The translations under genes were made by a program, and so were the position numbers. Below are positions 4,533 through 29,602 of a stretch of DNA of 64,000 nucleotides, piece by piece. This DNA comes from Verrucomicrobiia bacterium (GTDB taxonomy: Bacteria; Acidobacteriota; Polarisedimenticolia; Gp22-AA2): positions 101,283-165,282 of the forward strand of contig DASRAU010000046.1 in the NCBI GenBank assembly GCA_035638075.1. Direction: 5' to 3'. The notes under the pieces are model-generated. The model saw only the letters and a list, made by a program, of their open reading frames with translations. It was not told where the DNA came from and ran no database searches. Within the stretch, counting starts at the first letter, position 1, and each line of letters begins with the position of its first letter.

Positions 4533-6131
4533 TCACGGCTCGTACATGAACGACGCCAGGGCGCGGCGGAGGTCACGGGGCCGGCGGGCGCGGGCCAGCC
4601 CCATCGACCAGGCCTTCGCGGCGACGGCGGCGGCTATCGACCGCGAGATCCGGCGGATGTCGCGCAGCGGCGGGTAGAGCGAGCCCGCCTCGAGATCGCG
4701 CGGCCGGACGAGATCCGCGAGCGTGCGCGCCGCCGCCAGGAACAGCTCGTCGGGCAGTCCCTTCGCCTTGCAGAAGATCGCCCCCAGGCCGATCCCCGGG
4801 AAAACGTAGGCGTTGTTCCCCTGCCCCGGGCGACGGGTCTTCCCCCCGAGCGCCACGGGGAGAAACGGGCTGCCGCTGGCGAAGACGGCACGCCCCCCGC
4901 TCCACTCGTACGCCTGCGCGGCGGTGCACTCCGCCTTCGAGGTGGGATTCGAGAGCGCGAAGACGAGCGGCTGCTCGTTGTGCCGGGCCATCCGCTCGAT
5001 CGCCTCGCGGGTGAAGGTTCCCGGCGACCCGGTGGCGCCGATGAGCACCTGCGGCTTCAGCGCGTCGATCGCCTCGAGGAAGCCCAGCGGCGGGTGCGCG
5101 TGCGCGTAGGGGCGGTTGTGCTCGAGCAGGTCGTCCCGTCCGGCGACCACGAGCCCCTTCACGTCCACGAACCACAGCCTTCGGCGCGCCTCCTCGGGTG
5201 CAAGACCCGCGTCGACGAAGGCCGCCACCATGAGATCGGCGATGCCGGTCGCCGCCGAGCCGGCGCCCAGGAAGAGGATGGTCAGGTCCTCGAAGCGGCG
5301 ACCGGTGACGCGGGTCGAGGCGAGCACGCCCGCCAGGACCACGGCCGCGGTCCCCTGGATGTCGTCGTTGAAGCAGAGGAGACGCTCCCGGTATCGCTTC
5401 AGAAGCGCGTAGGCGTTCGGCGTCAGGAAGTCCTCGAACTGCAGCAGCGCGTCCGGATACCGCGATCGCACCGCGTCGACGAACTCGTCCACGAGCGCGA
5501 AGTACGGACGTGGCTTGATGCGGCGGCGCGGGTAACCGAGGTAGAGGGGATCCTCGAGGAGCGACGCGGTGTCGGTGCCGACGTCGAGCGTCACCGGCAG
5601 GCACGCCTCGGGGGGGATCCCCGCGCAGGCGGTGTAGAGGGCCAGCTTGCCGATCGGGATCCCCATCCCGTTGGCCCCGAGATCGCCGAGGCCGAGGATC
5701 CGCTGGCCGTCGGTCACGACGATCACCCGGATGTCCTTGTCGGGCCAGTTGCCGAGCATGCGGCGGATGCGACCGCGGTCGTCGGGGGTGATGAAGAACC
5801 CCTTCGGCTCGCGCGCGATGTGCGAGAACTCGCGGCACGCCTCCCCCACGGTCGGCGTGTAGATCCACGGCATGACCTCTTCGATGTGGTCGATCAACGT
5901 CCGGTAGAACAGGCGCTCGTTTCTTTCCTGCAGCCCGGACAGGAGCATGTAACGGTCGATGTCCCGCGGCAGGCGGCGCAGGTTCGTCATCACCCGATCG
6001 ACGAGACGCGCCTCGCTCCACACCCGGTGCGGCAGGAGCCCCTGAAGCCCGAGCCGCACCCGCTCGGTGCGCGAGTACGCGATGCCCCGGTTCAGGTGCT
6101 TGTCGCGCAGGATGTCGAACCCCTTCTTCAT
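4533..6131 (-). CDS. maeA: NAD(P)-dependent malic enzyme (malate dehydrogenase, oxaloacetate-decarboxylating)
   Basis: 532 aa from ATG 6131 (verified). Malic-enzyme motifs FNDDIQGTAAVVLAG, LFLGAGSAATGIA and SNPT. The antisense N-terminal 900 codons of track ORF 4533..8831 are rejected. Confidence 0.85.
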   Translation of the reverse strand: MKKGFDILRDKHLNRGIAYSRTERVRLGLQGLLPHRVWSEARLVDRVMTNLRRLPRDIDRYMLLSGLQERNERLFYRTLIDHIEEVMPWIYTPTVGEACREFSHIAREPKGFFITPDDRGRIRRMLGNWPDKDIRVIVVTDGQRILGLGDLGANGMGIPIGKLALYTACAGIPPEACLPVTLDVGTDTASLLEDPLYLGYPRRRIKPRPYFALVDEFVDAVRSRYPDALLQFEDFLTPNAYALLKRYRERLLCFNDDIQGTAAVVLAGVLASTRVTGRRFEDLTILFLGAGSAATGIADLMVAAFVDAGLAPEEARRRLWFVDVKGLVVAGRDDLLEHNRPYAHAHPPLGFLEAIDALKPQVLIGATGSPGTFTREAIERMARHNEQPLVFALSNPTSKAECTAAQAYEWSGGRAVFASGSPFLPVALGGKTRRPGQGNNAYVFPGIGLGAIFCKAKGLPDELFLAAARTLADLVRPRDLEAGSLYPPLRDIRRISRSIAAAVAAKAWSMGLARARRPRDLRRALASFMYEP

Positions 6132-7207
6132 CAGTACTCCTCGAACATCCGCTGGATCTCCTTCGGGTCCTGCGTCTTCGTCATCGCCAGGCGCAGCAGC
6201 ACGCGCGCCTTCTGCGGATTGTGCTCGAGCGAGGCGACGAACCCGAACTTGTCGTCGTCCACCTCGACCTTGCGCCCCACCTCCCCGGTGGCGACGCGCG
6301 AGGAGCGCACGCAGACGATCCCCTTCTTCGCCTGCGCCGCCAGCGCATCGAGCGCCGCCTGCGTCATGTTGCCGTTGCCCACCCCGGCGACGACGATCCC
6401 CTTCGCGCCGGCGGCGACGGCGGCGTCGATCAGCTTCCCGTCCATGTTCTCGTAGGCCATGATGATGTCCACCCGCGGCATCGGCGCAACGTTGCCGGCG
6501 AACTCCGACCCGGTGGTGTTGCGGCCGACCGGGCCGCGGTACCAGTCGATGTCGCCGTAGGCGACGCGGCCGATGAGACCCGACTGCGGCGACAGGAAGG
6601 TCTGCACCGCCGTGGTGCTGGTCTTGGTGAGCGACGACGCGCCGTGGATCCAGTCGTTGACCACGACGAGCACGCCGCGCCCCGCCGCGTCCTTGTTCGC
6701 CGCCACGGCGACCGCGTTGAAGAAGTTCAGCGGCCCGTCCGCCGACAGCGCCGTGGAGGGGCGCATCGCGGCCGTCAGGACGACCGGCTTCTTCGACTTG
6801 ACCACCAGGTTCAGGAAGTACGCGGTCTCCTCGATGGTGTCGGTGCCGTGGGTGATCACCACGCCGTCCACGTCGGACATCGCGGTCAGCTCGTTCACCC
6901 GCTTCGCCAGCTTCATCCAGACGTCGTCGTTCATGTCCTGCGAGCCGATGTTGGAGATCTGCTCGCCGCGCATCTTCGCCAGCTTCTGCGCCTGCGGCAC
7001 GGCGGCGAGGAGCTGCTCCACGCCGACCTGGCCCGACTTGTAGCCGGCCTGCACGTCGCTCGCGGCGGCCCCGGCGATGGTGCCCCCGGTGGCGAGGACG
7101 ACGATCGACGGCAGCGCCGCCTGTCCCGCCGGAGCGGGCGCGGCGGCCGCGAGGACGGCACACGCCAGGGGGACGAACACGGAACGGGACACACGGGAGA
7201 GCGACAT
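6131..7207 (-). CDS. ansB: L-asparaginase type II, periplasmic (signal peptide)
   Basis: 358 aa. Sec signal MSLSRVSRSVFVPLACAVLAAAAPAPAG. Asparaginase motifs VLATGGTIAG and HGTDTIEETAYFL. RBS AGGAGGAA upstream of ATG 7207. Confidence 0.85.
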   Translation of the reverse strand: MSLSRVSRSVFVPLACAVLAAAAPAPAGQAALPSIVVLATGGTIAGAAASDVQAGYKSGQVGVEQLLAAVPQAQKLAKMRGEQISNIGSQDMNDDVWMKLAKRVNELTAMSDVDGVVITHGTDTIEETAYFLNLVVKSKKPVVLTAAMRPSTALSADGPLNFFNAVAVAANKDAAGRGVLVVVNDWIHGASSLTKTSTTAVQTFLSPQSGLIGRVAYGDIDWYRGPVGRNTTGSEFAGNVAPMPRVDIIMAYENMDGKLIDAAVAAGAKGIVVAGVGNGNMTQAALDALAAQAKKGIVCVRSSRVATGEVGRKVEVDDDKFGFVASLEHNPQKARVLLRLAMTKTQDPKEIQRMFEEY

Positions 7208-7216
7208 GGATTCCTC

Positions 7217-8893
7217 CTAACGGGTCAGAAGCACGATGACGGGGCCCCACGCGGTCAGCAGCACGTTGCCGATCGCGTACGGGACCGTGTAGCCGAGCAC
7301 GGGAAGCTTGCTCTGCGCTTCGTCCTGGAGCGAGCGCAGCGCGGCGGTGACCGTGCCGGCGCCGGAGCAGGCGCCGAGCAGGATGACCGGATTCATCTTC
7401 AAGAGGAAGCGGCCCACCAGGATCGCCACCAAGTGCGGCACGACCGCGACCACGAAGCCGACCAGGAGCAGGCTCGGACCGGTCTGCTTCAGCCCGGCGA
7501 CGAAGCCCGGGCCGGCGTTGAGCCCGACGACGCCGATGAAGACGGCGAGGCCGATGGTGTCGAAGACCCACAGCGCCGGCTCGGGGATCCGTCCGAAGGT
7601 CGGGCGCACCGAGCGCAGCCAGCCGAAGAGGAGTCCCATGACGAGAGCACCCCCGCTGGCGGTGAGCATGAGCGGCAGACCGGCGACCTCGATTGACAGC
7701 AGCCCGAAGAGTCCCCCCACGAAGATGCCGAGCCCGACGAAGACGACGTCGGTGGCGCTCGACGGGCGCTCGATGTAGCCGAGGGCTTTCCCGGCCCGCT
7801 CCACGTCGCGCAGCGCTCCCGACAGCCGCAGCAGGTCGCCACGCTCGAGCCGGGTCGAGGCGGAAAACGGGATCTCCTGCCCGCCCCGGACGAGGGACTC
7901 GAGCGCGACCCCGCGTCCGTGCCGCTCGGCCACCTGGCGCATCGTCACGTCGACCAGCTCCCGGTTCGTCAGGACGACGTCGAGAGTCGCCACCGGGAAG
8001 TCGAGCAGGCGCCGATCGTCCACCTCGGTCCCCCCCTCGAGGCCGCCGGCCAGGACACGTCTCCGGGCGGCGATCGCGACCACGTCCCCCTCCGCGAGCT
8101 TCGTCTCCGGGGCCGCGACGAGGAGCTTGCGGCCGCGGCGGATGCGCTCGACGAAGACACGCTCCGGGGCGAACGACTCCTCGAACGCCCGCACCGTCCC
8201 GCCGGCGCGCGAGGCGCCGAGGCGATAGGAGCGCATCGACCACTCGCGGTAGGCCGGCTCCTCCCCCTCTTCCTCCTCGGGGCCGCTCCCCTGGAGCTCC
8301 TGCTGGAGCTTCTTCGCCTCCGCCTTCAGATCGATCCGCAGCAGCCGCGGCGCGAGGCTCGACAGGAACCAGACGACGAACCCGGTGCCGACGAGATACG
8401 AGACGGCATAGGCGATCGGGATGTTGTTGAGCAGGCGCTCGGTCTCGGCGGGGGCCAGTCCCAGCCGGCCGATCGTGTCGCCGGCGGTGCCGATGACCGT
8501 CGACTCGGTGAAAGCCCCCGCCAGGAGCCCGGCGGCGGTGCCGCAGTCGTAGCCGAAGACCTTCGCCGCGATGAGCGTCGCGGCCAGGCTCGTGACGCAC
8601 AGCACGACCGTGACCACGACCTGGGGGATCGCGCCTTTCCCCAGGCCGCGGATGAACTGCGGGCCGACCTTGTATCCCGTGGCGAAGAGGAACAGGTCGA
8701 AGAAGACCACCTTGACCAGCGGGTCCACCGGAATCGCCAGCTGCCCGATGACCACCCCCGCGATGAGGGTGCCGACGACGTTGCCGAGGGTGAAGCCGCC
8801 CAGGCGGAGGCGCCCGAGGACGAACCCGCACGCGAGCGTCAGGAAGATCGCCAGCTCCGGATGCGTCCGCAGCGCGGTCACGACCCAGGTCAT
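7217..8893 (-). CDS. AspT/YidE/YbjL-family (aspartate:alanine exchanger family) transporter with central TrkA-C-like domains
   Basis: 558 aa from ATG 8893 (verified). Two membrane domains flank a cytoplasmic RCK-C-like region, the architecture of the AAE family. The 1005-aa track ORF N-terminus is antisense run-on. Confidence 0.75.
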   Translation of the reverse strand: MTWVVTALRTHPELAIFLTLACGFVLGRLRLGGFTLGNVVGTLIAGVVIGQLAIPVDPLVKVVFFDLFLFATGYKVGPQFIRGLGKGAIPQVVVTVVLCVTSLAATLIAAKVFGYDCGTAAGLLAGAFTESTVIGTAGDTIGRLGLAPAETERLLNNIPIAYAVSYLVGTGFVVWFLSSLAPRLLRIDLKAEAKKLQQELQGSGPEEEEGEEPAYREWSMRSYRLGASRAGGTVRAFEESFAPERVFVERIRRGRKLLVAAPETKLAEGDVVAIAARRRVLAGGLEGGTEVDDRRLLDFPVATLDVVLTNRELVDVTMRQVAERHGRGVALESLVRGGQEIPFSASTRLERGDLLRLSGALRDVERAGKALGYIERPSSATDVVFVGLGIFVGGLFGLLSIEVAGLPLMLTASGGALVMGLLFGWLRSVRPTFGRIPEPALWVFDTIGLAVFIGVVGLNAGPGFVAGLKQTGPSLLLVGFVVAVVPHLVAILVGRFLLKMNPVILLGACSGAGTVTAALRSLQDEAQSKLPVLGYTVPYAIGNVLLTAWGPVIVLLTR

Positions 8894-10296
8894 CGCGCCA
8901 CCATCAGCAGCCACGGCGTCCCAACCGCCAGATAGAGGACCAGGCAGAACGCCGTGGTCAGGGCGCCGAGCTTGTAGAGATCCCCCTGCGACAGGTAGCC
9001 GCTCCCGGCGAACAGCAGGTTGGCGCTCGAGGCCTGCGGCGTGATGGAGGAGAACCAGTTGGTCGCGAACAGCAGATGAAAGGCGAGCGGCGCCGGGGCG
9101 ACCCCGAGCTTCACCCCGACCCCGAGGAAAACGCCGAACAGGGCCAGCAGGTGCGCGGTCTGGCTGACGAACAGGTAGTGCAGCAGGGCATAGGCGACCA
9201 CGAGCAGGATCCCCGCCGGCAGCGGCGACAAACCCTCCAGCCGGCCGACCAGGCGCTGGCCGAGGAACTCCATGAACCCGAGCTTGTTGAGCTGGTCGCT
9301 CATCGTGAACAGGACCGCGAACCAGATGAACGTCGCGAGGACGTCTCCTTCCTTCGCGATGTCGTCGAGGGTGAGCACCGCCGTCGCGAGCAGCAGGCCG
9401 AGCCCGAGGAAGGCGACCGCGGTGGCGTCCACTCCGAGCATCGCCGACGTGCCCCACAGGGCGACCATCCCGACGAAGGTGGCCGCGACGATCTTCTCGT
9501 CGCGCGTCAAAGGGCCGAGCGCCGCGAGCGCTTTGCGCGCCTCCGCCGGGGCGTCCGGCGTCGCCGTCACCTCGGGCCGGATGACTTTGTAGAGAAAGAC
9601 GGGAAGAAGCGCCATGGCGGCGAGCGTCGGCACCGAGGCGGCGACGAGCCACGACCCGAAGCTGATCGTGACCCCCAGGCCGCGGGCGATCTCCGCCCCC
9701 AGCGGGTTGGCGGCCATCGCCGTGAGCCACAGCGCCGACGACAGCGACAGGCTGGCAATCCCCGAGAACATCAGGAACCGGCCGAGGCGTCTCCGATCCT
9801 CCCGGTCCGGCTTCGCCCCCGCCGCCTCGGCCACCGAGAAGACCAGCGGATACAGGACCCCCGAGCGCGCGGTGTTGCTCGGGAACGCCGGCGCGATGAT
9901 CGCGTCCACCGCGAAGATGCTGTACGACAGGCCGAGCGTCGAGCGGCCGAACAGCGCGATGACGCGGTAGCCGAGCCGCTGTCCCAGCCCGCACTTGACC
10001 ACGGCGCGCGCCACGAGGAACGCGATGACGATCAGCAGGATGGTCGGGTTGCCGAAGCCGGCGTAAGCGTCCGCCGGAGCGAGCGTCCGCGTCAGCACCG
10101 CCGCCGCCACCGCGAGCACCGAGGCGGTCAGGATCGGGAACGCCCCGATCACGACCGACAGGATGGCCGCAGCGAACAGCGCGAACAGGTGCCAGGCGGG
10201 CGGGGTCAGCCCTTCGGGGACGGGGAGCACCCACAACCCCGCCGCCGCCGCGAAGGCGGCGAGGCGGAGCCAGGCACTCCGGCCCGGGGGCTTCAC
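8890..10296 (-). CDS. DASS-family (SLC13/CitT-like) divalent anion:Na+ symporter; GTG start
   Basis: 468 aa, about 12 TM segments, with duplicated hairpin-loop regions typical of DASS carriers. ATGA overlap with the downstream AspT-family gene. Confidence 0.75.
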   Translation of the reverse strand: MKPPGRSAWLRLAAFAAAAGLWVLPVPEGLTPPAWHLFALFAAAILSVVIGAFPILTASVLAVAAAVLTRTLAPADAYAGFGNPTILLIVIAFLVARAVVKCGLGQRLGYRVIALFGRSTLGLSYSIFAVDAIIAPAFPSNTARSGVLYPLVFSVAEAAGAKPDREDRRRLGRFLMFSGIASLSLSSALWLTAMAANPLGAEIARGLGVTISFGSWLVAASVPTLAAMALLPVFLYKVIRPEVTATPDAPAEARKALAALGPLTRDEKIVAATFVGMVALWGTSAMLGVDATAVAFLGLGLLLATAVLTLDDIAKEGDVLATFIWFAVLFTMSDQLNKLGFMEFLGQRLVGRLEGLSPLPAGILLVVAYALLHYLFVSQTAHLLALFGVFLGVGVKLGVAPAPLAFHLLFATNWFSSITPQASSANLLFAGSGYLSQGDLYKLGALTTAFCLVLYLAVGTPWLLMVAR

Positions 10297-10306
10297 GACC
10301 CCGGTC

Positions 10307-11719
<1,413 letters not shown>

Positions 11720-11796
11720 GACGAACCTCCCTTCAAACCGCCCGCCGCCGGGACCGGCCAGGTGCCGGACCCGGCGGCGGTTCACATCTTTTCAGC

Positions 11797-12837
11797 TCAC
11801 TTCGGCTTCATCGCATAAGGGTTGCCCCCGAGCGCGTTGCTGATGTCGGCGATCGCCTTCTGCGCCCGCACGCTGTTCCCCGCCTCGTCGAGCGGCGGGG
11901 AGATGACCGCGATGCCGAATTTTCCCGGCGAGACGGCGATGATGCCGCCGCCGACGCCGCTCTTGCCCGGCAGCCCGGTGCGGAAGAGCCATTTGCCGGA
12001 GTCATCGTAGAGCCCGGCGGTCGCCATCACCGCCAGGATCTTCGGAACGTTCTCGGTCTTGATCACCTGCTTTTTGGTGGCCGGGTTCCTGCCGCCGTTG
12101 GCGAGCGTCGCCGCCATCATGGCGAGATCCTTCGCGTTGACGCTCACCGAGCACTGCTCGGTGTAGATGTCGGTGGCGCGGTTCGGCTCCGCCTTGATGT
12201 AGCCATAGGCGTGCATCAGCATGCCGATGGCCTGGTTGCGCTGGTTGGTGTCCGCCTCCGACTTGAAAACCTCCTGGTTGACCTTGAGGGGCCGCCCGGC
12301 ACAGTCGGAATAGAAGGACAGGATCTTGCTCCAGATCTCGTCCCGGGTCGCCCCCTTGACGAGCGACGTCGTGGCGATGGCGCCCGGGTTGACGAGCGAG
12401 TTCATCTCCGGGCCGCCGAGCACCTTGTTCGCCATCTCGACCGCGACGATCGAGTTGAAGCGCATGCCGGTGGCGTCCACGCCGATGGTGTTGGCGATGA
12501 AGTCGGCGCCCGACTCCTCCATCACCTTGGCCATCGTGAAGACCTTGGAGATCGACTGGATGGAGACTTCCGAGGTGATGTCCCCGGTGGTGCTGACCGA
12601 CCCGTCCACGCCGACGAGCGCGATGCCGTAGATGTTCGAATCGACCTTGGCGAGGGCCGGGATGTAGTCGGCGTTCTTCCCTTCCTTGAGCGTCCTGTAC
12701 TTGTCGTACGCCGCCTTCATGGCGGCGTCGACCTGGGGCTTGGCGGGCGCCTGCGCGTGGGCGGCCGGAACCGCCGCCAGCGCGAAAACGAGCCCGAGCG
12801 CCAGCGCCCGGGTGGGTGTGATGGTCCTGGTGTTCAT
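11797..12837 (-). CDS. glsA: Glutaminase with Sec signal peptide (periplasmic)
   Basis: 346 aa. Signal MNTRTITPTRALALGLVFALAAVPAAHAQA. Serine-beta-lactamase-like glutaminase core (SISKVFT, GKSGVGGGIIAV). Confidence 0.85.
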   Translation of the reverse strand: MNTRTITPTRALALGLVFALAAVPAAHAQAPAKPQVDAAMKAAYDKYRTLKEGKNADYIPALAKVDSNIYGIALVGVDGSVSTTGDITSEVSIQSISKVFTMAKVMEESGADFIANTIGVDATGMRFNSIVAVEMANKVLGGPEMNSLVNPGAIATTSLVKGATRDEIWSKILSFYSDCAGRPLKVNQEVFKSEADTNQRNQAIGMLMHAYGYIKAEPNRATDIYTEQCSVSVNAKDLAMMAATLANGGRNPATKKQVIKTENVPKILAVMATAGLYDDSGKWLFRTGLPGKSGVGGGIIAVSPGKFGIAVISPPLDEAGNSVRAQKAIADISNALGGNPYAMKPK

Positions 12838-12859
12838 GCGCCTTCCCCTGCCTTTCTCC

Positions 12860-14113
12860 CTAGGTGCCGCTCTCGCGGGTGTTCTTCTTGAAGACGTCCT
12901 TGGTCGAGAAGGAGTAGTGGAACGAGAACTGGACGCGCAGGTCGTCGCCGCTGTCGTCGTCGTTGTCGGTCCGCTTGCCCCACAGCGCCTCGCCCCCGCA
13001 CATCACGTTCTTCGTCGGGTAGTAGAGGAGGTTCGCCGAGGCGTACTCGCCGTTGTGGTAGGCATCCACCGCCTGGAGATCCCGGTTGTCCACCTTGGTG
13101 AACGAGTAGCCGAAGGCGCTCGAGAACCTGTCGCTCCAGTACTGGTTGTAGTAGGCGCTGACACCGAGGAGCGGCAGCGCCGCCGGCTCGGGGTCGACGA
13201 GCGTCCCGTCCGCCGAGAGATCGACGCCGCCGTCGTTCATGTACGAGGCGATCCCCTTCCCCCAGACCACGCCGGCCATGATGGAGTTCTTCTTCTCCTT
13301 CCCGAGCTTCAGGGACCCGGTCAGATCGACGCCATAGCCCGTCTCGCTCCCCTTCGGCTCGGCGTCGGGCGCGCCCGGGGTGTCGAAGGCGACCTTCCTC
13401 AGGAGGCCGGCCACCTGCCAGTGTCCCCAGCCCTCGACGTTGCGGAACTGCGCCGTGAAGTCGGGGACCTTCTCCGACCCGGTCACACCACCCAGGGCCG
13501 GGTCGATCTCCCGGATCTGACCTGGATCGACGTCGCTCGACGGCCTCTCGATGGCGATGGAGAAGGTCCGGTGCTCCGTCTGGACGAATGAATAGCGGAT
13601 CTGCGGGTTGCGGATGAACACCATCCCGGCCGGGCCCCAGTAGTCGATGACGTTCGGGAAGATGCTGGCGTCCATGAACAGCGTGTTGGTCTGCCCGGCG
13701 AGCCAGTGGTTCCATTCGCCGTAGGCGTGCCGCAGGCGGATGGTCGTCTGCCCTTCGTCCACGCCCACGCCGAACATGTCGAACTCGAACTTGGTGTAGA
13801 CGGGATGGTTGCTGGTCGGGAAGTTCATCAGCACGCCGAGCCGGCTCTGCTTCGCCGACAGGCTGGCCTGGCCGTCCTCGCCGAACTGGTCGTCGGTGGT
13901 CGGGATCTTCGACGGGCGCAGCGTGTCGTTCCAGGCCGGATCCACCCGCTTGAAGTCCTGGATGTAGTCGGCCTGCACGAAGCCGTACACCTCGACGTGC
14001 GGCGTGTTGTCCTGCGCCAGCGCGGTTCCCGTGCCCGGGAACGCGACCAGAAGCGCCGCCATGACGACGAAAGTCCCTGCCGCCGAGAACCACCTCCGAG
14101 TGCTGTTTTCCAT
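12860..14113 (-). CDS. DcaP-like outer-membrane porin (putative)
   Basis: Internal ATG 14113 (RBS AAGGAGG) gives 417 aa. Signal peptide ...VVMAALLVAFPGTGTALAQ, a long beta-rich region and C-terminal aromatic-rich strands. Family assignment by overall pattern only. Confidence 0.5.
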   Translation of the reverse strand: MENSTRRWFSAAGTFVVMAALLVAFPGTGTALAQDNTPHVEVYGFVQADYIQDFKRVDPAWNDTLRPSKIPTTDDQFGEDGQASLSAKQSRLGVLMNFPTSNHPVYTKFEFDMFGVGVDEGQTTIRLRHAYGEWNHWLAGQTNTLFMDASIFPNVIDYWGPAGMVFIRNPQIRYSFVQTEHRTFSIAIERPSSDVDPGQIREIDPALGGVTGSEKVPDFTAQFRNVEGWGHWQVAGLLRKVAFDTPGAPDAEPKGSETGYGVDLTGSLKLGKEKKNSIMAGVVWGKGIASYMNDGGVDLSADGTLVDPEPAALPLLGVSAYYNQYWSDRFSSAFGYSFTKVDNRDLQAVDAYHNGEYASANLLYYPTKNVMCGGEALWGKRTDNDDDSGDDLRVQFSFHYSFSTKDVFKKNTRESGT

Positions 14114-14190
14114 CGTGCCTCCTTGCGAGTCTGAGTGGACGGTCGACGTGCCGGAGCCGTTCAACGCTCCGCTGCTCTCTTCACTGGCCC

Positions 14191-15264
14191 TCACTTCGCG
14201 TGCGCCTTCTCCCAGGCCCGCACCTTCATGCGGGCCGCGTCGAACAACCGCTCGTAGTTGCCGCGCAGGAATTTCGCGCGCGCGTCCGGCGTCAGTTTCG
14301 CCAGCAGCGGCGCGTACAGGTCATAGGTCTTGAGGTAGCTCTTCTGGTTCGACGGCGCGACCTCGTCGGTGCCGAACAGCACCCGATCGGGGTTGCGGTT
14401 GATGAAGTCGGCGGTCGCGGCGATCGACTCGGGGGAGGCCACGGCGTATTTCGCCACCTCGTCCCACGACAGATCGACGTACACGTTGCGGAGCTTCGCC
14501 ATCGCCAGGGCCCGCTCGATGATGCCGAGCTGGTCGCGGACGGGATGAACGATGCGCCCGAGCCCCATGTGGGCCCAGATGACGGTGGCGTCGGGGTGGC
14601 GCGACAGGAGCTCGCGGAGCTGCACGGCCGGGTACGGATCCTGTCCCGGCTTCGGGAAGGGCATGTCGATGTCGTTGTGCAGCAGGACCACCAGACCCGC
14701 CTCGGCGGCGAAGTCGAGGATGCGGTCGAGCGCCGGGTTCGTCAGGCTGGCGGTCTCGCCGGCGACCTTCGACGAGACGAACTCCTTGTGGATGGTGAAC
14801 TCGCCGATGCCGGAGAAGACCCCGGGGAAGGTCAGAAGCACCCGCCGGATGTGATCGGCGGCGTACATGTCGGCCGGGTTGAAGCCGGTGATCATCGGGT
14901 CGAAGCGCGCCTGCTCGCTCTTCGCGAGGGAGCGGTACGCCATGGCGATGAAGGCGTCGGTGAACGAGTAGTAGTAGAGAGGCGCGTCGGACTGGAGGTA
15001 ATACGTGGGCGCGAAATCCCCGCTGTTGCCGTACGACCAGGTCTGCTGCAGCGGGATGCCGAACAGCGCCACCCGGCCCACCTTGTCCCCCATGATCTTC
15101 AGGAACTCGCGGATGTCGGTGCCTTCCTGGACGTAGTTGGTCAGGTGGAAGTGGCAGTCGTTCACGACCTCCGCCGAGCCCGACGCCGGGGCCGGAGCGG
15201 CGCCCGCGGCGCCGTTCGCCAGGAGCGCCGCGAGCAGGACCGCGCCGGCAACTCGGAGCCGCAT
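14191..15264 (-). CDS. Secreted amidohydrolase-2-family (TIM-barrel metal-dependent) hydrolase
   Basis: 357 aa from ATG 15264. Signal MRLRVAGAVLLAALLANGAAGAAPA. N-terminal DCHFHL metal-binding motif and HMGLG. ATGA overlap with the upstream porin gene stop. Confidence 0.6.
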   Translation of the reverse strand: MRLRVAGAVLLAALLANGAAGAAPAPASGSAEVVNDCHFHLTNYVQEGTDIREFLKIMGDKVGRVALFGIPLQQTWSYGNSGDFAPTYYLQSDAPLYYYSFTDAFIAMAYRSLAKSEQARFDPMITGFNPADMYAADHIRRVLLTFPGVFSGIGEFTIHKEFVSSKVAGETASLTNPALDRILDFAAEAGLVVLLHNDIDMPFPKPGQDPYPAVQLRELLSRHPDATVIWAHMGLGRIVHPVRDQLGIIERALAMAKLRNVYVDLSWDEVAKYAVASPESIAATADFINRNPDRVLFGTDEVAPSNQKSYLKTYDLYAPLLAKLTPDARAKFLRGNYERLFDAARMKVRAWEKAHAK

Positions 15265-16832
15265 CAGAAATTCATCTCCATGTTGACGTGGTAGACATCG
15301 CCGTCGCCGCCGACCGGGTAGGGCACCGCCGCGTAACCGACGGGGCAGTTGTTCAGCCGGATCCACTCGGCGTTGAGCCGGAAGCCCCGCTTCTTCAGCG
15401 GATACCAGTTCGCCCCGGCGCGGATCTCCGTGCTGTCGCCGAAGTCACCGTTGATCTCCGCGCCGCCGGCGTAGAGTTGCAGCGCGTTCTTGATCACCAT
15501 GGCGGACGCCTGCACCTGGTAGCCGTCGTCGGTGATCGGCTCGAGCAGGTCGGTGCCGGGGCCCCTGTAGTCGCTCAGCCGGCGCCGGAAGTACTCCGCC
15601 TCGACCGAGAACCCCTTGTACTTGAAGCCGCCGTCGAGACTCGCCATCTCGTAGAGGACGTCGGTGACGTTGATGCCGACGCCGAAGAGATCGGGGGTGA
15701 AGATGACGCTGCCGTCGGTGAGGCGGATCTGGCTGTTCTCGATCGAGTCGGTCCCCGGCTGCGACTGCTGATTCTCATGACTCTTGGTGTAGTGCCCGGC
15801 GAGGCGGGTCGCGGGCTTCTCGTGCCAGTCGTAGTCGCCGAAGGTGCCGTACAAGCCGAACTCTCCCGTCGTCGGCAGCCACTGCAGCATGTACGACATG
15901 GTGTTCAGGCCGTTGTCGATCTGCGTGGCGCTGACGCCGAGCGTGCTCAGGTTGTTCCCGAGCATCACCATGTACTTGAGCTTGGTGGTCAGCTCCCCCT
16001 TGATCCAGGCGCCGCTCGTGTAGGAGCCGCGGAAGAACTCGTCCGACGTCAGCCGGTCGTCCACCCCGAGCCAGTAGGGGAACTGCCCTTCGGTGCTGCG
16101 GGTGCTCGGGAGGCTGGTGATGCCGGCGCCGAAAGTGACGAAGCGGTTGAAGGTCCACGACAGGTTCCCGGCGCCGACCACCTGCGCCGGATCCCCCTGC
16201 GAGGTGTTGGCCGACCAGACGTACAGGTAATAGCGCAGGCGCGGATCGAGGAACCAGCCCGAGAACGGCAGGAAGAACTTCACCAGCTGGATGTCCTCGC
16301 GCAGCTGCACGTTGTGCTCGTTGCCGAAGAAGTCGGTGTACGACGGCTCGAGGCTTTCCTGGTTCAGGTAGCGCGCGTAGGAGAAGAGCCGCATGTAGAT
16401 CTGGCCGTTGTCGCCGTCGAAGAGGAGGAACCCGGCGTTCGGCACGTACCGCGGCGCGCGCTGCTTCGTCGCGACCTTCTCCACCGCCTGCGACAGCTCC
16501 TCGCCGACCACGAACTCGCCGGTGCAGCCGTCCGAGACCCAGACGCCGTCATCGTCGTAGCCCCAGGTCTTGCCCAAAAGGCAGGACGCCTGTCCCGACG
16601 AGCGCAGCAGCGCCACCCCCTTGGTGGTGTTGGCGGGACAGTGGTTGCGCTCGCCGAGCTTCGAGGCGCACGTGATGGTGACCGCCTCCCGGGCTTTCTG
16701 CAGCTCGTGCGACTGCGGCTGGTCCACGGGAGGAGGCGGCGCGCCCTGGGCGATCAGCGCGGAGGGGAGGAGAGCCGTCACGGCGAGCCCCAGGAGGCCC
16801 GCCAGCGCGGCGGCCGGGACCTTGCCTCGCAC
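15264..16832 (-). CDS. Outer-membrane beta-barrel protein with N-terminal four-Cys DUF3011-like domain; GTG start
   Basis: 522 aa. Signal peptide, then ITCASKLGERNHCPAN..SCLLGKTWGYDDDGVWVSDGCTGEF (4 Cys; WG..DG.WV..GC motif), then about 400 aa of alternating beta-strand pattern ending ...MEMNF. Confidence 0.55.
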   Translation of the reverse strand: MRGKVPAAALAGLLGLAVTALLPSALIAQGAPPPPVDQPQSHELQKAREAVTITCASKLGERNHCPANTTKGVALLRSSGQASCLLGKTWGYDDDGVWVSDGCTGEFVVGEELSQAVEKVATKQRAPRYVPNAGFLLFDGDNGQIYMRLFSYARYLNQESLEPSYTDFFGNEHNVQLREDIQLVKFFLPFSGWFLDPRLRYYLYVWSANTSQGDPAQVVGAGNLSWTFNRFVTFGAGITSLPSTRSTEGQFPYWLGVDDRLTSDEFFRGSYTSGAWIKGELTTKLKYMVMLGNNLSTLGVSATQIDNGLNTMSYMLQWLPTTGEFGLYGTFGDYDWHEKPATRLAGHYTKSHENQQSQPGTDSIENSQIRLTDGSVIFTPDLFGVGINVTDVLYEMASLDGGFKYKGFSVEAEYFRRRLSDYRGPGTDLLEPITDDGYQVQASAMVIKNALQLYAGGAEINGDFGDSTEIRAGANWYPLKKRGFRLNAEWIRLNNCPVGYAAVPYPVGGDGDVYHVNMEMNF

Positions 16833-16834
16833 CG

Positions 16835-17386
16835 CTAGTCGACTTTGACGATGAGCGCGTTCGAATAGGTGACGTCGACGCGGTCGCCGGGCTTCACGCC
16901 CTTGAGGAGCTTCTTGTCCTCGACCCGGACGCTGACGGTGTGGTAGTCCCGGGCGAGGAAGGTGAGCACGCCCGAGCCGCGATCCACGTCCTTCACCAGC
17001 ACGGTCCCGGTCATCTGCCGGGTCACGGTACCGCCCGGCTTCGGCCCGGTGCCGCGGACGATCGACGCTTCCCCGCTCGCGGCGGCGGGCAGCGGCTGCC
17101 CCGGCTTGCGGACGCTCACCGCGATCGCTTCCGTGTACTCGAAGGTGACCGTGTCCCCGATCTGCAGCTCGTCGAAGCGCTGGATCCCGGGCTCGGCATA
17201 GAGGGTCTGGAGGTTGCCGTCTCTGTCCTTCAGGGACACGGTGCGGCCGGCGCGGTCGATCGCCTCGATCTTCGTCTTGAGGGTGATCGTCCCCTTCTTC
17301 TCGATCGGCTGCGGTTCCGCGGCGATCGCCGTCAGGGCCACGGCAAGCCCGATGCCGAGCGCGGCGACCAGCAGGATGCCTTTCAT
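16835..17386 (-). CDS. Secreted tandem CusF-like (OB-fold) two-repeat protein, paralog 1
   Basis: ATG 17386 with RBS GAGGAGGG; signal MKGILLVAALGIGLAVALTAIAAE. Two about 60-aa repeats (TITLKTKIEAIDRAGRTVSLKDRDGNLQTL..FDELQIGDTVTFEY and TGTVLVKDVDRGSGVLTF..LKGVKPGDRVDVTY). The repeats resemble CusF topology but lack its His/Met/Trp ligands. Confidence 0.6.
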   Translation of the reverse strand: MKGILLVAALGIGLAVALTAIAAEPQPIEKKGTITLKTKIEAIDRAGRTVSLKDRDGNLQTLYAEPGIQRFDELQIGDTVTFEYTEAIAVSVRKPGQPLPAAASGEASIVRGTGPKPGGTVTRQMTGTVLVKDVDRGSGVLTFLARDYHTVSVRVEDKKLLKGVKPGDRVDVTYSNALIVKVD

Positions 17387-17475
17387 GGCTGAACCCTCCT
17401 CAGGGGCGATCCCCCCCAGGATCATCGGGGCTTATATCACGGTGAGACCCGCTCCTGCTGCCAGGCGCGCGGGTT

Positions 17476-18198
17476 TCAGACGGCCTTCAAACCCTGAGAG
17501 CGGAACATCGCGACGGCGCGTTCCGCGCTCCCGGACGACGGCGGCTCGGTGGCCTCGAGCGTGTAGTCCATCTTCAGCTCCTTCCACTTGAAGCGCCCCA
17601 GCTGGTGGAACGGCAGGACGTCCACGCGCTCGACGTTGCCGAGTTCCCGGCAGAATGTCGCGATCGGCTCGATGTTCTCCACGTCGTCGGTCAGGCCCGG
17701 GACGAGGACGAAGCGGACCCAGACGGGACGCCGCTTCGCCGCCAGGCGACGGGCGAAGTCGTGCACCGGGCCGACCGGCTGCCCGGTGAGCCTGCGGTGC
17801 CGCGCGTCGTCCCACGTCTTGAGATCGAGGAGGACCAGGTCGAAGGCCTCCAGCTCGGCGTCCGACAGGCGCTCGCCGAGGAAGCCGTTGGTGTCGAGCG
17901 CCGTGTGGATCCCCATCCGGCGCGCCGCCGTGGCCAGGTTCACGACGAAGCGGTCCTGCACCAGCGGCTCGCCGCCGCTGATGGTGAGCCCGCCCGACAT
18001 CACCTGGAGCCCGCTGCGGTACTTCGCCAGCTCCTCCGTGGCACGCGCCAGGGTCACCGGGATGCCGTTGCTCATCTTCCAGGTGTCCGGGTTGTGGCAG
18101 TAGAGGCACTTGAACTGGCAGCCGGTGGTCCAGACGACCACGCGCATTCCCGGCCCGTCCACGGCCGACGCGGTCGTGAACGAATGCAGGAACCCCAT
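17476..18198 (-). CDS. pflA: Pyruvate formate-lyase activating enzyme (radical SAM)
   Basis: 240 aa from ATG 18198. GFLHSFTTASAVDGPGMRVVVWTTGCQFKCLYCHNPDTW matches the PflA N-terminus including the CxxxCxxC radical-SAM motif. Confidence 0.85.
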   Translation of the reverse strand: MGFLHSFTTASAVDGPGMRVVVWTTGCQFKCLYCHNPDTWKMSNGIPVTLARATEELAKYRSGLQVMSGGLTISGGEPLVQDRFVVNLATAARRMGIHTALDTNGFLGERLSDAELEAFDLVLLDLKTWDDARHRRLTGQPVGPVHDFARRLAAKRRPVWVRFVLVPGLTDDVENIEPIATFCRELGNVERVDVLPFHQLGRFKWKELKMDYTLEATEPPSSGSAERAVAMFRSQGLKAV

Positions 18199-18293
18199 CT
18201 GTCCGGTCTGGAGTGCGGTGCGGACGTCCGCTTCGGGAACGCCCTCGCCGAGATGGACCCGCAGCTCGTAGGGGCTTTTCGCTTCGAGGTCGC

Positions 18294-20567
18294 TCACGAG
18301 GCGCCCGCGCCGTGGAACGTGCGGTTGATGACGTCCATCTGCTGCTCTTTCGACAGCCGCACGAAGTTGACGGCGTAGCCCGAGACCCGGATCGTCAGGT
18401 GCGGGTACTTCTCGGGGTGATCCATCGCGTCGAGCAGCGTCTCGCGGTTCAGGACGTTGACGTTCATGTGGAAGCCGGTCGATCCGAAGAAGGCGTCGAG
18501 CGCGCCGCGCAGGTTGGCGATGCGATCTTCGGGAACGCGGCCCAGCCCCTCGGGAAGGATCGACGCGGTCAGCGAGATGCCGTCCGCCGCGTCGCGGTAG
18601 GGGATCTTCGCGACCGACGAGGCGGAGGCCTGCAGCCCGTGGCTGTCGCGCCCGTGCATGGGATTGGCCCCGGGAGCGAACGGTTCCCCCTGCCGCCGGC
18701 CGTCGGGGGTGTTGCCGGTGTTCTTGCCGTAGACCACGTTCGAGGTGATGGTGAGCACCGATTGCGTGTGCAGGGCGTTGCGGTAGGTCGGGTACTTGCG
18801 CAGCATGGCCATGAAGGTGCTGACGACCCACGACGCCAGGTGATCCACCCGGTTGTCGTTGTTGCCGAACTGCGGAGACTTGCCCTCGACCTTGTAGTCC
18901 TTCACGAGGCCGGTCTCGTCCCGCACGACCGTCACCTTCGCGTGCCGGATGGCCGACAGGCTGTCGGCGACGACCGACAGCCCAGCGATGCCGAAGGCCA
19001 TCGTCCGCAGCGGCGCGTAGTCGTGCAGCGCCATCTCCAGCCGCTCGTAGGCGTACTTGTCGTGCATGTAGTGGATGACGTTCATGGCGTTGACGTACAC
19101 GCCGGCGAGCCACTCCATCATCCGCTCGAACTTCTCGATCACGTCCTCGAAGACCAGCGCATCCCCCTGCACCGGATCGAAACGGGGCGCGATCTGTTCC
19201 CCGCTCATCTCGTCGCGGCCGCCGTTGATGGCGTAGAGGAGGCACTTGGCGAGATTGGTGCGGGCGCCGAAGAACTGCATCTGCTTGCCCAAAAGCATCG
19301 GCGAGACGCAGCAGGCGATGGCGCCGTCGTCCCCCCAGGCGCGGCGCATCATCTCGTCGCTCTCGAACTGGATCGACGAGGTCTCGATGGCCACCTTCGC
19401 GGCGTAGCTGCGGAACCCGTCCGGCAGCTTCGGCGAGTACCAGATCGTCAGGTTCGGCTCGGGGGCCGGCCCCAGCGTGGACAGCGTGTTGAGGAAGCGG
19501 AAGGAGCTCTTCGTCACGAGCGCGCGCCCGTCGTCCCCCATGCCGCCGATCGACTCGGTCACCCAGGTCGGATCGCCGGCGAACAGCTCGTCGTATTCCG
19601 GGGTGCGCAGGAAGCGGACGATGCGCAGCTTGATGACGAAGTCGTCGAGGATCTCCTGCGCCTGCTCCTCGGTCAGCGTCTTCTCCGTCAGGTCCCGCTC
19701 GAAGTAGACGTCGAGAAAGGTGGAAGTCCGCCCGAGCGACATGGCGGCGCCGTTCTGCTCCTTCACCGCCGCGAGATACGCGAAGTAGAGCCACTGCACC
19801 GCCTCCCGGGCGCTTGTCGCCGGGCCGGAGATGTCGAAGCCGTAGGCTTTGGCCATCTCCTGCAATTCGCCGAGGGCGCGGATCTGCTCGCTCAGCTCCT
19901 CGCGGTCGCGGATGATGTCCTCGGTGGACATGCGCGCGTCGAGCCGGTTCTTCTCGTTCTGCTTGCGCTCGACGAGGCGCGCCACGCCGTAGAGCGGCAC
20001 CCGCCGGTAGTCGCCGATGATGCGCCCGCGCCCGTAGGCGTCCGGCAGACCGGTGAGGATGTGCGAGGAGCGGCAGCGGCGGATGTCGGCGGTGTAGGCG
20101 TCGAACACGCCGTCGTTGTGCGTCTTGCGGTATTTCGTGAACGTCTCGACGACGTGCGGGTCGGCCTCGTAGCCGTAGGTCTTCAGCGCCCCCTGCACCA
20201 TGCGGAAGCCGCCGTTGGGCATGATGGCGCGCTTGAGGGGTGCTTCGGTCTGCAGCCCGACGATGATCTCCCGCTCGCGCTCGATGTAGCCGGGCTGGTG
20301 CGCCAGAATACCGCTGGGGATCTGCGAGATGTCGAGGACCCCCTTCTTGCGCTCCTCGACGAACAGGACGTTCAGCTTCTCCCAGATTCCCTGCGTCCGC
20401 TTCGTCGCCCCGGCGAGGAACGCTTCATCCCCTTCGTACGGCCGGTAGTTCGCCTGGATGAAGTCGCGGACGTCGATCTCCCGCTTCCACAGGCCGTCGG
20501 CGAACCCGCGCCAGGCCTTCGTCGTGTCGATCGGCTTCTTGTCCTCTTTCACTTTCACCGTCTTCAT
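18294..20567 (-). CDS. pflB: Formate C-acetyltransferase (pyruvate formate-lyase)
   Basis: 757 aa from ATG 20567 (verified: [11 protein letters not shown]). Catalytic Cys pair (GAIACCVSP) and C-terminal glycyl-radical motif [11 protein letters not shown]. Confidence 0.9.
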
Positions 20568-20581
20568 CGCCCTCACCTTCT

Positions 20582-21763
20582 TCACAATCCCAGAAGCGCG
20601 GCGGTGTGCCGCGCGATCATCAGCTCTTCGTTGGTCGGCACCACCCACGCCGACACCCGGCTCTTCGCGGTCGAGATCCGCGGGCCGCCACGCTCGTTCG
20701 CCGCCGCGTCGATCTCGAGGCCGAGCCAGGCGCAGGCCTCGACGATGCGCCGGCGGATCTCCGCCGAGTTCTCGCCGATGCCGGCGGTGAAGACGAGACC
20801 GTCCAGCCCCTGGAGCGTCGCCGCCATCGCCGCGACGTGCTGCGCGGCCGAGGAGACGAAGTAGTCCACCGCGAGGCGCGCCTCGGGCGCGTCGTTCCCC
20901 ACCAGGTCGCGCATGTCGTTGCTGATCCCGGAGATTCCGAGCAGTCCCGACTTCTTGTAGAGGAGTGTTTCGATCTCCTTCCCCGACATCCCCATCCCCT
21001 GCACCAGGTACAGGACCGCGCCGGGATCGAGGCTCCCGGGCCGCGTTCCCATGCACAGCCCGTCGAGCGCCGTGAACCCGAGCGTGGTATCCAGGCTCTT
21101 CCCGTTCTTCAGCGCGCAGAGGCTGGCGCCGCTGCCGAGGTGCGCGACGACGACCCGCTTCAGGGCGATCTCCGGCGCCACCTCGGGCAAGATTGAGGCG
21201 ATGTACTCGTACGACAGGCCGTGGAAGCCGTAGCGCTGCATCCCGGCATCGCGGAACTCTTTCGGAAGCGGGACCAGCTCGGTGACCGCCGCGCGCCCAC
21301 GGTGGAACGAGGTGTCGAAGCAGGCGACCTGGGGCACATCCGGGAGCTTTTCGAACACCGCCTCGATCGCCGCCAGGTTGTAGGGGACATGGAGCGGCGC
21401 CAGGGGAATGAGCTTCTTGAGCTCCGACAGGCATCGCGCGTCGACCTTGACCGGCGCCGTGTAGGTGGGACCGCCGTGCACGACGCGGTGCCCGACGCCC
21501 AGCACCTTGCCTCCTCCGAACTTCGAACGCAGCCAGGTGGCGACGGCGTCGAGCACCGGCCCGCCGTGCTTCAGCGACGCGTCGAGCTCCTGCCCGGCCA
21601 GCGGCTTGCCCTGCGCGTCCTTCACCGTGAGCTGCGGCTTGGTGCCGATTCCTTCGATCTGCCCGCGCGCCTCGAGTTCGAGGGCCCCCTGGCGAGGGTG
21701 CCCGAAGACGCGGAACTTCAGGCTCGAGGATCCGGCATTGAGAACGAGGAGATGATCGCCCAC
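20582..21763 (-). CDS. ackA: Acetate kinase; GTG start
   Basis: 393 aa from GTG 21763 (GAGGGG 4 nt upstream). N-terminal [14 protein letters not shown], plus HRVVHGG and the ASKHD-superfamily pattern. Confidence 0.85.
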
Positions 21764-21771
21764 GGCGCCCC

Positions 21772-22716: not shown

Positions 22717-22729
22717 CGAATGCTCCCGT

Positions 22730-23968: not shown

Positions 23969-24016
23969 CGCGGCCCCGACGCCGGGCCTGCCGCCGCTCC
24001 CCACGACCTGCCGGTC

Positions 24017-26235: not shown

Positions 26236-26452
26236 GAGGCGATCCCTCCTGGGCATCGATGAGTTGTCTGAAACGGCCGAAGCATAGTCCCATTCCTCGA
26301 GGCGCGGCGAATCTCTTTTTTTGAGCTCGAGGAGGAGGGTGGCGGGGATGCCAGGATTCGCGCCGGTTTCCCGGCCCCTCCCGGCCGGATGGAGAGTCCC
26401 GCGTGCGCAGCGCCATCGACTCGCTCATCCAGACGCAGAGACCTCTCTCCAG

Positions 26453-28761: not shown

Positions 28762-28816
28762 GATCTCTCCTTCTCTCTCCTTGAATGTTTCGGTGCGACG
28801 CGCGCGGCGCCTGTGG

Positions 28817-29467: not shown

Positions 29468-29566
29468 CACGAAACCTCCTCCGCACTCCCGGACCCAAGC
29501 AGGGTAAAAGCCGCTCCCGTCCGACTCCATACCCCGGACCACGCAAGCCCGGGACAGAATCCTCGC

Positions 29567-29572: not shown

Positions 29573-29602
29573 CCCGTCCGCTCGAGGATCCGGGGTCAAT
29601 CG

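Follow-up and report, generated by a model that had tools for sequence, protein, structure and literature searches.

What joins genes for two outer-membrane porins, exported hydrolases, an aspartase, two inner-membrane carriers and a malic enzyme in a single array? The question is raised by a 64,000-nt stretch of contig DASRAU010000046.1 (hereafter, the window; G+C content ~70%), from an assembly deposited as Verrucomicrobiia bacterium. At positions 4533 to 17386, the minus strand carries ten open reading frames (ORFs), arranged head to tail in the order cusF-like, porB, amidohydrolase, DcaP-like porin, glsA, aspA, DASS carrier, aspT, ansB and maeA, just as an earlier note on this DNA had read them; that note saw in them a dedicated module for scavenging nitrogen and carbon from amino acid amides. 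We searched the window proteins against family and structure databases and compared them with those of 83 related loci, which are referred to below by L-numbers. Judging from the sequences, we give a probability of about one half to the reading that the island deamidates asparagine and glutamine in the periplasm, imports aspartate and C4 acids and, in this lineage, feeds pyruvate fermentation.

Eight of the ten genes scored above curated Pfam or NCBIfam family cut-offs, and nearly all of the family labels that had been assigned by eye were upheld. The type II L-asparaginase gene ansB (6131 to 7207; 358 aa) scored 438 with TIGR00520 (cut-off 314) and 443, below the cut-off of 506, with the E. 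coli-type equivalog NF008304, and its translation contains the TGGTIAG and HGTDT catalytic threonine motifs and a hydrophobic N-terminus. The aspartate ammonia-lyase gene aspA (10307 to 11719; 470 aa) passed NF008909 (711 vs. 510), fell just below the cut-off of TIGR00839 (654 vs. 681) and stayed far below those of the fumC models (463 and 412 vs. 665 and 840, respectively); its product carries the GSSIMPGKVNP signature. The DASS-family di/tricarboxylate carrier (8890 to 10296; 468 aa) matched TIGR00785 (314 vs. 199) and Pfam Na_sulph_symp (366 bits), and the AspT/AAEx-family exchanger encoded beside it (7217 to 8893; 558 aa) passed the equivalog cut-off of TIGR03802 (632 vs. 547). The glsA gene (11797 to 12837; 346 aa) encodes a glutaminase A (NF009020, 428 vs. 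395; Pfam PF04960, 343 bits) with the SISK version of the Ser-x-x-Lys motif, and maeA (4533 to 6131; 532 aa) encodes a malic enzyme of the SfcA/MaeA type (NF010052, 675 vs. 326) that scored 463 with the malolactic-enzyme model, below its cut-off of 850. The proposed conversion of asparagine to aspartate and then to fumarate and NH3 is supported as well, and this asparagine/aspartate branch is textbook biochemistry.

Using a criterion of a basic start, a hydrophobic 10-mer score of at least 2.5 and an Ala-X-Ala-type cleavage site, we found signal-peptide-like N-termini in the window's cusF-like protein, PorB, amidohydrolase, DcaP-like porin, GlsA and AnsB, and none in AspA or MaeA, in agreement with the periplasmic location that had been claimed for the hydrolases. 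In GlsA, the N-terminal ~28 residues lie beyond the family model, of which position 3 aligns with residue 29, and form a signal-peptide-like extension. The criterion failed its control on orthologues, where upstream extensions of AspA also scored positive because, in GC-rich DNA, the ORFs had been drawn out as far as the first start codon, and we therefore used it for the window proteins only.

The first porin gene, porB (15264 to 16832; 522 aa), encodes a protein in which residues ~53 to 113 form one lectin-like DUF3011 repeat (48.5 bits vs. a Pfam cut-off of 25). Its AlphaFold2 model, with a predicted local distance difference test score (pLDDT) of 64, begins with a small beta-rich domain, which a linker connects to a large all-beta barrel. 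At that pLDDT, the best-matching PDB folds were the anion-specific porins OprP (2o4v; E = 2e-10) and OprO, with TM-scores of 0.43 to 0.53 and sequence identities of 12 to 14%, followed by classical trimeric porins. The barrel of the window protein had no Pfam match, and sequence and profile searches of PDB with PorB returned nothing; its orthologue in Peristeroidobacter agariperforans does pass the cut-off for Pfam Porin_O_P (32.8 vs. 20.9). The DUF3011 domain itself is present in only 25 of 75 PorB orthologues. The second porin gene (12860 to 14113; 417 aa), whose start codon is backed by the orthologue in L084, matched Pfam DcaP (PF19577) with 71.4 bits vs. a cut-off of 27 over profile positions 64 to 220 of 410 only, and the orthologue in L048 matched positions 115 to 395. 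NCBIfam, searched at E-values up to 10, contained nothing for either the PorB barrel or the DcaP-like porin. We considered the two porins as recent paralogues and rejected this, as BLASTP of the PorB barrel against the DcaP-like porin detected no similarity.

The gene that follows porB (14191 to 15264; 357 aa) encodes a periplasmic metal-dependent hydrolase that matched Amidohydro_2 (PF04909) over the full profile (78.5 bits vs. 26.4). Seven positions, H38 and H40 (an HxH motif), E155, K160, H196, H232 and D300, were invariant in an alignment of 33 sequences, and H38, H40, H196, H232 and D300 are of the residue kinds that bind metal in the superfamily. Sequence and profile searches of PDB found no relative, and NCBIfam had no family for the protein at E-values up to 10. 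When its AlphaFold model (pLDDT 68) was searched with Foldseek, only remote Amidohydro_2 folds were recovered, at 12 to 19% identity and TM-scores of ~0.4 to 0.5: the decarboxylases ACMSD, IDCase and LigW, the lactonase LigI and the hydratase LigJ. The enzyme therefore cannot be assigned a chemistry by homology, and in the PDB, Foldseek and NCBIfam searches it fell into no characterized subfamily (ACMSD, LigI, LigJ, LigW, IDCase or the sugar lactonases). Many invariant residues, including the stretch LYYYSFTD, were also seen in residues ~64 to 103 (window ~14956 to 15075), where the pLDDT of the model is 31 to 47; this segment may be a substrate-binding lid.

The amidohydrolase is nonetheless very common. 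A search of ~5.8 billion proteins gave at least 8000 scored matches as 90%-identity clusters, with none of the top 120 less than 74% identical to the query, and at 50% clustering the family collapsed to essentially one full-length representative, a few divergent ones and many fragments. Among contigs representing one genome per species, relatives were present in at least 590 species genomes. The best 80 of these at least 590 loci, 65 to 81% identical, belong to several classes of Acidobacteriota, to Bacteroidota (Chitinophagaceae and Saprospiraceae), Alpha- and Gammaproteobacteria and Gemmatimonadales, and also to Nitrospirota, Zixibacteria, Krumholzibacteriia, Ignavibacteria and one planctomycete. 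The median cross-phylum identity was ~72% for the amidohydrolase, vs. 61 to 76% for glutaminase, 57 to 59% for aspartase and 45 to 60% for asparaginase in the same loci, which puts its conservation at roughly the level of these three enzymes or above it, with an upward bias in the amidohydrolase value because the loci were picked by similarity to that protein.

Comparison of gene order, which the earlier note had proposed as a check, showed that the neighborhood recurs in the 83 related loci from several phyla. The porB gene lay directly upstream of the amidohydrolase gene in 66 of the 83 loci, and the DcaP-like porin gene lay directly upstream of glsA in 51. The two pairs swap places, with DcaP-glsA-porB-amidohydrolase found 23 times and porB-amidohydrolase-DcaP-glsA 17 times, and each porin stays with its enzyme. 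The aspA and ansB genes were each located within 10 kb of this cassette in 21 loci, on either side and either strand, in at least four phyla and in groups that include Acidobacteriota, Bacteroidota, Steroidobacteraceae and Gemmatimonadales. By our own estimate, a single-copy gene would fall within 10 kb by chance in ~0.4% of cases in a 5-Mb genome; aspA and ansB each lay that close in 25% of the loci, with arrangements that are independent of one another, and this speaks for functional coupling. A DASS gene follows aspA in Acidobacteriota and Gemmatimonadales; the loci with this order include L007, L010, L013, L014, L017, L018, L082 and L084. A Porin_O_P gene follows ansB in Steroidobacteraceae, Chitinophagaceae, Gemmatimonadales and one metagenome-assembled genome of the Acidobacteriales, so that ansB and Porin_O_P constitute a third pair of channel and hydrolase.

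The closest relatives of the window reveal how far the array can be taken apart. In L084, from a forest-soil metagenome, the complete array is present gene for gene (MFS-pta-ackA-pflB-pflA-cusF-porB-amidohydrolase-DcaP-glsA-aspA-DASS-aspT-ansB-maeA, followed by a convergent BrkB-family gene), and its proteins are 65 to 93% identical to those of the window. In L001, the flanking genes are the same on either side, but aspA to ansB are lacking; the last 63 codons of maeA (L001 13626 to 13814; 67% identity) stand directly after glsA. This remnant, together with the shared flanks, indicates a deletion in L001 and an intact state in the window. Apart from the remnant, maeA was found in the window and L084 only, and the other 81 loci were without it; the connection of malic enzyme with the island is thus lineage-specific.

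The junctions, read from the sequence, fit a modular arrangement. As the earlier note had described, many are short or overlapping: 2 nt separate cusF-like from porB, porB and the amidohydrolase gene overlap by 1 nt, the gap between the DcaP-like porin gene and glsA is 22 nt, that between aspA and the DASS gene is 10 nt, the DASS gene and aspT share the 4-nt overlap ATGA, 9 nt separate aspT from ansB, and ansB and maeA overlap by 1 nt. The amidohydrolase/DcaP and glsA/aspA junctions are gaps of 77 nt each. Both 77-nt gaps coincide with module borders, and the one between glsA and aspA is also the edge of the block deleted in L001. The cluster thus consists of three modules: cusF-like-porB-amidohydrolase, DcaP-like porin-glutaminase and aspA-DASS-aspT-ansB-maeA. 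The functional linkage that had been proposed for these genes withstands their reshuffling across phyla, while the idea of one tight unit does not survive the 77-nt borders, the hairpin described below and the loss in L001; the cluster is functionally linked but modular.

The gap between glsA and aspA contains a GC-rich stem-loop of 39 nt directly 3' of glsA (11742 to 11780, minus strand), and the gap holding it folds at approximately –42 kcal/mol. A hairpin follows glsA in L084 and L001 as well, with differing sequence. Since only 22 nt lie between the end of the window hairpin and the ATG of aspA, this gene would have to be read through the hairpin or from a promoter inside glsA. The element may act as a partial terminator or attenuator or may stabilize the mRNA, and in any of these roles it would mark a module border. 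Transcription of the cluster probably involves at least two units, predicted to be cusF-like-porB-amidohydrolase, with or without DcaP-glsA, and aspA to maeA. Approximately 45 nt upstream of the cusF-like gene, an AT-rich GTGATATAAGC (17430 to 17440, minus strand) has been kept in the window, L084 and L001 inside otherwise GC-rich, diverged spacers, and it is a probable –10 promoter element. Consensus scans for sigma-70, sigma-54 and FNR sites found no convincing site in the relevant window gaps, and an Rfam scan of the window gave no match.

Directly upstream of the island and co-directional with it, Pfam identified sdaA (L-serine dehydratase), an MFS carrier, pta, ackA, pflB and pflA (17476 to 25400, minus strand; upper boundary approximate), with the starts of pta and ackA fixed at 22716 and 21763 by alignment to L084. 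Island and block belong to a minus-strand run of 19 co-directional genes from 28860 down to 4533, in which the second CusF-like paralogue, followed by an alpha/beta hydrolase and the last of the three paralogues, is encoded still further upstream. The same sdaA-pfl block also precedes the cassette in L001 and L084, and pfl genes recur in its vicinity in L006, L052 and L067. The emphasis on nitrogen and carbon scavenging had been placed without this block, which lies outside the ten genes; its presence shifts that emphasis also toward anaerobic carbon and energy metabolism. The E. coli tdc operon, for the anaerobic degradation of threonine and serine, encodes a dehydratase, a carrier, a kinase and a PFL-like enzyme. 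The upstream block is tdc-like in that a serine dehydratase and a carrier are encoded together with pyruvate formate-lyase and an acetate-kinase route; it differs from tdc in gene order and families and in forming one co-directional array with amide and aspartate modules.

In the reading that we favor, each outer-membrane channel would admit the substrate of the enzyme encoded directly behind it. Periplasmic glutaminase would convert glutamine to glutamate and NH4+, and periplasmic AnsB would convert asparagine to aspartate and NH4+. The DASS and AspT-family carriers would then move aspartate and C4-dicarboxylates over the inner membrane, a role suggested by analogy with DcuA beside E. coli aspA, and cytoplasmic AspA would produce fumarate and NH4+ from aspartate. 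A fumarase encoded elsewhere could hydrate the fumarate, after which malic enzyme would yield pyruvate. Pyruvate formate-lyase, Pta and AckA would take pyruvate to acetyl-CoA and formate and on to acetate and ATP, with ammonium as a usable by-product, and serine would join the pyruvate pool through serine dehydratase. Because the island directly follows sdaA-MFS-pta-ackA-pflBA, serine, asparagine/aspartate and C4 acids would converge on pyruvate. The sequences themselves show the gene identities, the export signals, the pairing of porins with enzymes, the module borders and the cross-phylum synteny; the porin and amidohydrolase substrates, the carrier specificities, the route of flux and the transcription units are the parts of this model that we infer.

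The weakest step concerns the amidohydrolase, which would hydrolyze a further small, probably anionic compound. Because the enzyme is so constantly paired with a porin of the anion type and keeps company with GlsA, AnsB and AspA, our guess is an aspartate- or glutamate-related compound with an amide, lactam or ureido group, and we hold any specific substrate assignment with low confidence. Extending the guess, we tentatively propose, with the odds leaning against it, that the protein is a new enzyme of organic-nitrogen mineralization, a third activity cleaving amides, lactams or ureido compounds beside asparaginase and glutaminase and served by its own OprP-like channel, and that pairs of a porin and a periplasmic hydrolase would then be a general, widespread design through which soil bacteria from many phyla obtain small nitrogen compounds.

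Several observations weigh against the favored reading. Chitinophagaceae and Steroidobacteraceae, to which many carriers of the core cassette belong, are generally known as aerobes, and the fermentation link would therefore be lineage-specific. DcaP is reported to be a dicarboxylate channel. OprP is reported as a phosphate channel (PDB entry title, 2o4v). The nearest characterized relatives of both porins are thus reported as anion channels, whereas glutamine and asparagine are neutral. The closest fold relatives of the amidohydrolase, being decarboxylases, a lactonase and a hydratase, include no amidase. Among ~57 window ORFs scanned against Pfam, comprising the large ORFs with some smaller ones left out, we found no fumarase, fumarate reductase, alanine dehydrogenase, aspartate 4-decarboxylase or glutamate carrier; the branch from glutamine to glutamate is therefore without an encoded continuation, and the step from fumarate to malate is missing locally. 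Finally, the modules can work and be expressed separately, as is shown by the hairpin that follows glsA and by the clean deletion of aspA to maeA from L001. An aspartate-to-alanine bypass, in which aspA, fumarase, malic enzyme and alanine dehydrogenase would feed AspT, was dropped as the principal interpretation given that neither alanine dehydrogenase nor fumarase was found nearby among the scanned ORFs.

The competitor that survives best is nitrogen mining, in which the hydrolases and aspartase would free ammonium from organic amides under nitrogen limitation and the link to pfl, pta, ackA and malic enzyme would be an accident of this lineage. Every enzymatic step that can be assigned does free NH4+, maeA is missing from 81 of the 83 loci, and the core cassette is widespread in groups generally known as aerobes, without pfl nearby. 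Sigma-54 activator genes stand beside the cassette in eight loci (including L003, L005, L010 and L017), yet we found no sigma-54-like promoter in the relevant window gaps. An accidental link also sits poorly with the 16-gene order, pfl and maeA included, that L084 has kept at 65 to 93% protein identity, and with the recurrence of pfl next to the cassette in a different class (L067). We consider nitrogen mining as the main role possible but rather improbable, and continue to favor deamidation and import coupled to pyruvate fermentation.

A narrower challenge applies to the porB-amidohydrolase pair, which could belong to another pathway and merely travel with the glutaminase pair. Such a pathway might, for example, take up an acidic sugar lactone, a uronate derivative or an aromatic acid and hydrolyze or decarboxylate it. 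The chemistry of the fold relatives leaves room for lactone hydrolysis or decarboxylation. The only DUF3011 protein of known function is a galacturonic-acid-binding lectin of the sea hare Aplysia (PMC5484111), although two-thirds of PorB orthologues are without the domain. Five complete loci (L027, L032, L064, L065 and L074) carry the amidohydrolase without glsA; in most loci across phyla, however, it adjoins the glutaminase pair despite rearrangement, and in L013, L063 and L082 the AnsB gene directly precedes it. No recurrent sugar- or aromatic-catabolic genes were present in the neighborhood, and we regard the assignment of the pair to another pathway as unlikely.

Still less probable is a role in periplasmic pH homeostasis, in which ammonia from glutaminase, asparaginase and the amidohydrolase would buffer the periplasm in acidic soils. 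Ammonia-producing enzymes do help Helicobacter pylori survive acid (PMC11988274), and many carriers of the cassette are Acidobacteriota from soil metagenomes, but the cassette is found equally in Chitinophagaceae, Steroidobacteraceae and Gemmatimonadales, and the aspartase, dicarboxylate carriers and malic enzyme to which it is coupled suggest that the carbon skeleton is used. Mere adjacency of unrelated genes, to which the two 77-nt gaps, the hairpin and the loss of one module in L001 might be taken to point, is effectively refuted by synteny, given that aspA and ansB lie near the cassette in a quarter of the loci vs. the estimated ~0.4%, in several phyla and arrangements.

Deamidation outside the cytoplasm followed by import of the acid, as the favored reading would have it, is an established concept in H. 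pylori and Campylobacter jejuni. In H. pylori, periplasmic deamidation by gGT is coupled to uptake by GltS (PMC11988274), and C. jejuni secretes AnsB and encodes AspA (Cj0087) and DcuA (Cj0088) side by side (PMC3417520). As in these systems (gGT-GltS and AnsB-DcuA in H. pylori; AnsB, AspA and DcuA/DcuB in C. jejuni), the island would deamidate asparagine and glutamine outside the cytoplasm, import the acid and use aspartase to release fumarate and NH3, and, as at C. jejuni aspA-dcuA, its aspartase gene stands beside a C4-dicarboxylate carrier gene. The export signals of a coupled deamidase-transport set are present, with the DASS and AspT genes adjacent to ansB or aspA and no glutamate carrier among the scanned window ORFs. 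The island differs in handling glutamine with a signal-peptide-bearing GlsA-type glutaminase in place of gGT, in using carriers of the DASS and AAEx/AspT families in place of Dcu, in providing each periplasmic enzyme with its own outer-membrane channel gene and in adding a third, uncharacterized periplasmic hydrolase. Its genes are all clustered, whereas those of the epsilonproteobacteria are scattered.

Other known systems resemble single parts of the island. E. coli DcuA is described as an exchanger of L-aspartate and C4-dicarboxylates whose gene adjoins aspA (PMC10634366; bioRxiv 10.1101/2021.03.01.433382). The E. coli set of aspA-dcuA and ansB, by which asparagine and aspartate serve fumarate respiration and nitrogen supply under anaerobic conditions, shares with the island an aspartase, an adjacent aspartate/C4-dicarboxylate exchanger and a periplasmic type II asparaginase. 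The island departs from it in its transporter families, in the malic enzyme gene translationally coupled to ansB and in that we found neither a fumarate reductase or fumarase nearby nor an FNR-like site in the island gaps.

The gene for the AspT antiporter is typically encoded next to one for aspartate 4-decarboxylase. The window protein resembles AspT of the Tetragenococcus AspT-AspD system in passing the TIGR03802 cut-off; in the window, however, aspT adjoins the DASS carrier gene and ansB, no aspartate 4-decarboxylase was found among the ORFs scanned, and its partners are aspA, the DASS carrier, ansB and maeA. The exchange substrates of this AspT may therefore differ, for example, aspartate against succinate or another C4 acid. 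PorB resembles Pseudomonas OprP/OprO in its best fold matches and through the Porin_O_P match of its orthologue, and differs in its N-terminal DUF3011 domain, its low identity and the lack of a Pfam barrel match of its own. The second porin resembles the dicarboxylate porin DcaP of Acinetobacter in its Pfam match, which covers less than half of the profile.

In the literature, we found no description of the cassette recurring across phyla, of porin genes paired with each periplasmic hydrolase, of a GlsA-type glutaminase with an export signal or of the ultra-conserved amidohydrolase. Periplasmic deamidation of asparagine and glutamine with uptake of aspartate and glutamate is known from a few pathogens and E. 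coli; here, it would take the form of a portable cassette in soil bacteria that spans Acidobacteriota, Bacteroidota, Pseudomonadota, Gemmatimonadota and other phyla, with a dedicated outer-membrane channel per enzyme and a third enzyme as features not reported for those systems. Identification of the amidohydrolase substrate would give a function to a very common soil protein and could reveal an unrecognized route of organic-nitrogen turnover. The island also offers a concrete hypothesis for amino-acid fermentation by uncultured Acidobacteriota under anoxia.

Cultured bacteria carry the cassette, namely L048 (P. agariperforans KA5-B), L051, L045 (Niastella yeongjuensis DSM 17621) and L049 (Pollutibacter soli JS81), and would be ready experimental systems. 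In L048 (2307 to 12585), the order is aspA-ansB-Porin_O_P-DcaP-glsA-porB-amidohydrolase-MscS, on one strand and with short gaps.

Further genes recur around the cassette. A gene for a DUF481 outer-membrane protein was a neighbor in 23 loci, and genes for response regulators of the LuxR type were neighbors in 19; rarer ones were MscS-type channels (9 loci), the sigma-54 activators (8 loci), a DUF2950/DUF3300 pair and a HisKA_3 kinase with a periplasmic solute-binding-like domain. In Acidobacteriaceae loci (L057, 1438 to 3342; L078, L080, L055 and others), the cassette is flanked by the HisKA_3 kinase, there with an ABC-substrate-binding-like periplasmic domain, and by LuxR-type regulators. The kinase, these regulators and, in other loci, the adjacent sigma-54 activator are candidate regulators of the cassette. 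The DUF481 gene of the window (35350 to 36531, plus strand) lies ~18 kb from the cassette, after an RND efflux operon (28685 to 35444).

The first gene of the array, which encodes 183 aa (16835 to 17386), is the case in which a family label did not hold. The match of its product to Pfam CusF_Ec (PF11604) spans 22 residues only and, at 23.5 bits, is below the cut-off of 27. The protein has two domains and is one of three exported paralogues in the window (16835 to 17386, 25690 to 26277 and 28051 to 28680, minus strand), which all score just under the Pfam CusF threshold, are 41 to 54% identical to each other and in whose alignment we saw, by eye, no copper-binding motif of the Met/His type. One paralogue stands before the cassette, another before the sdaA-pfl block and the third beside the RND efflux operon. 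A cusF-like gene was present near the cassette in only 6 of the 83 loci.

In L010, ~2.5 kb between the DASS gene and aspT (16871 to 19417) carry long ORFs without Pfam matches on both strands. The closest relatives of the window genes are all from Acidobacteriota, including Polarisedimenticolia, Terriglobia and Vicinamibacteria, so the NCBI label Verrucomicrobiae may be wrong. Elsewhere in the window, a separate Amidohydro_1/Amidohydro_3 protein (56150 to 57550, plus strand) is unrelated to the amidohydrolase of the cassette; a MacB-like permease (60756 to 63209), a DSBA-domain protein (39080 to 40267) and a DUF5946 protein (40532 to 41683) are encoded in the same part of the window.

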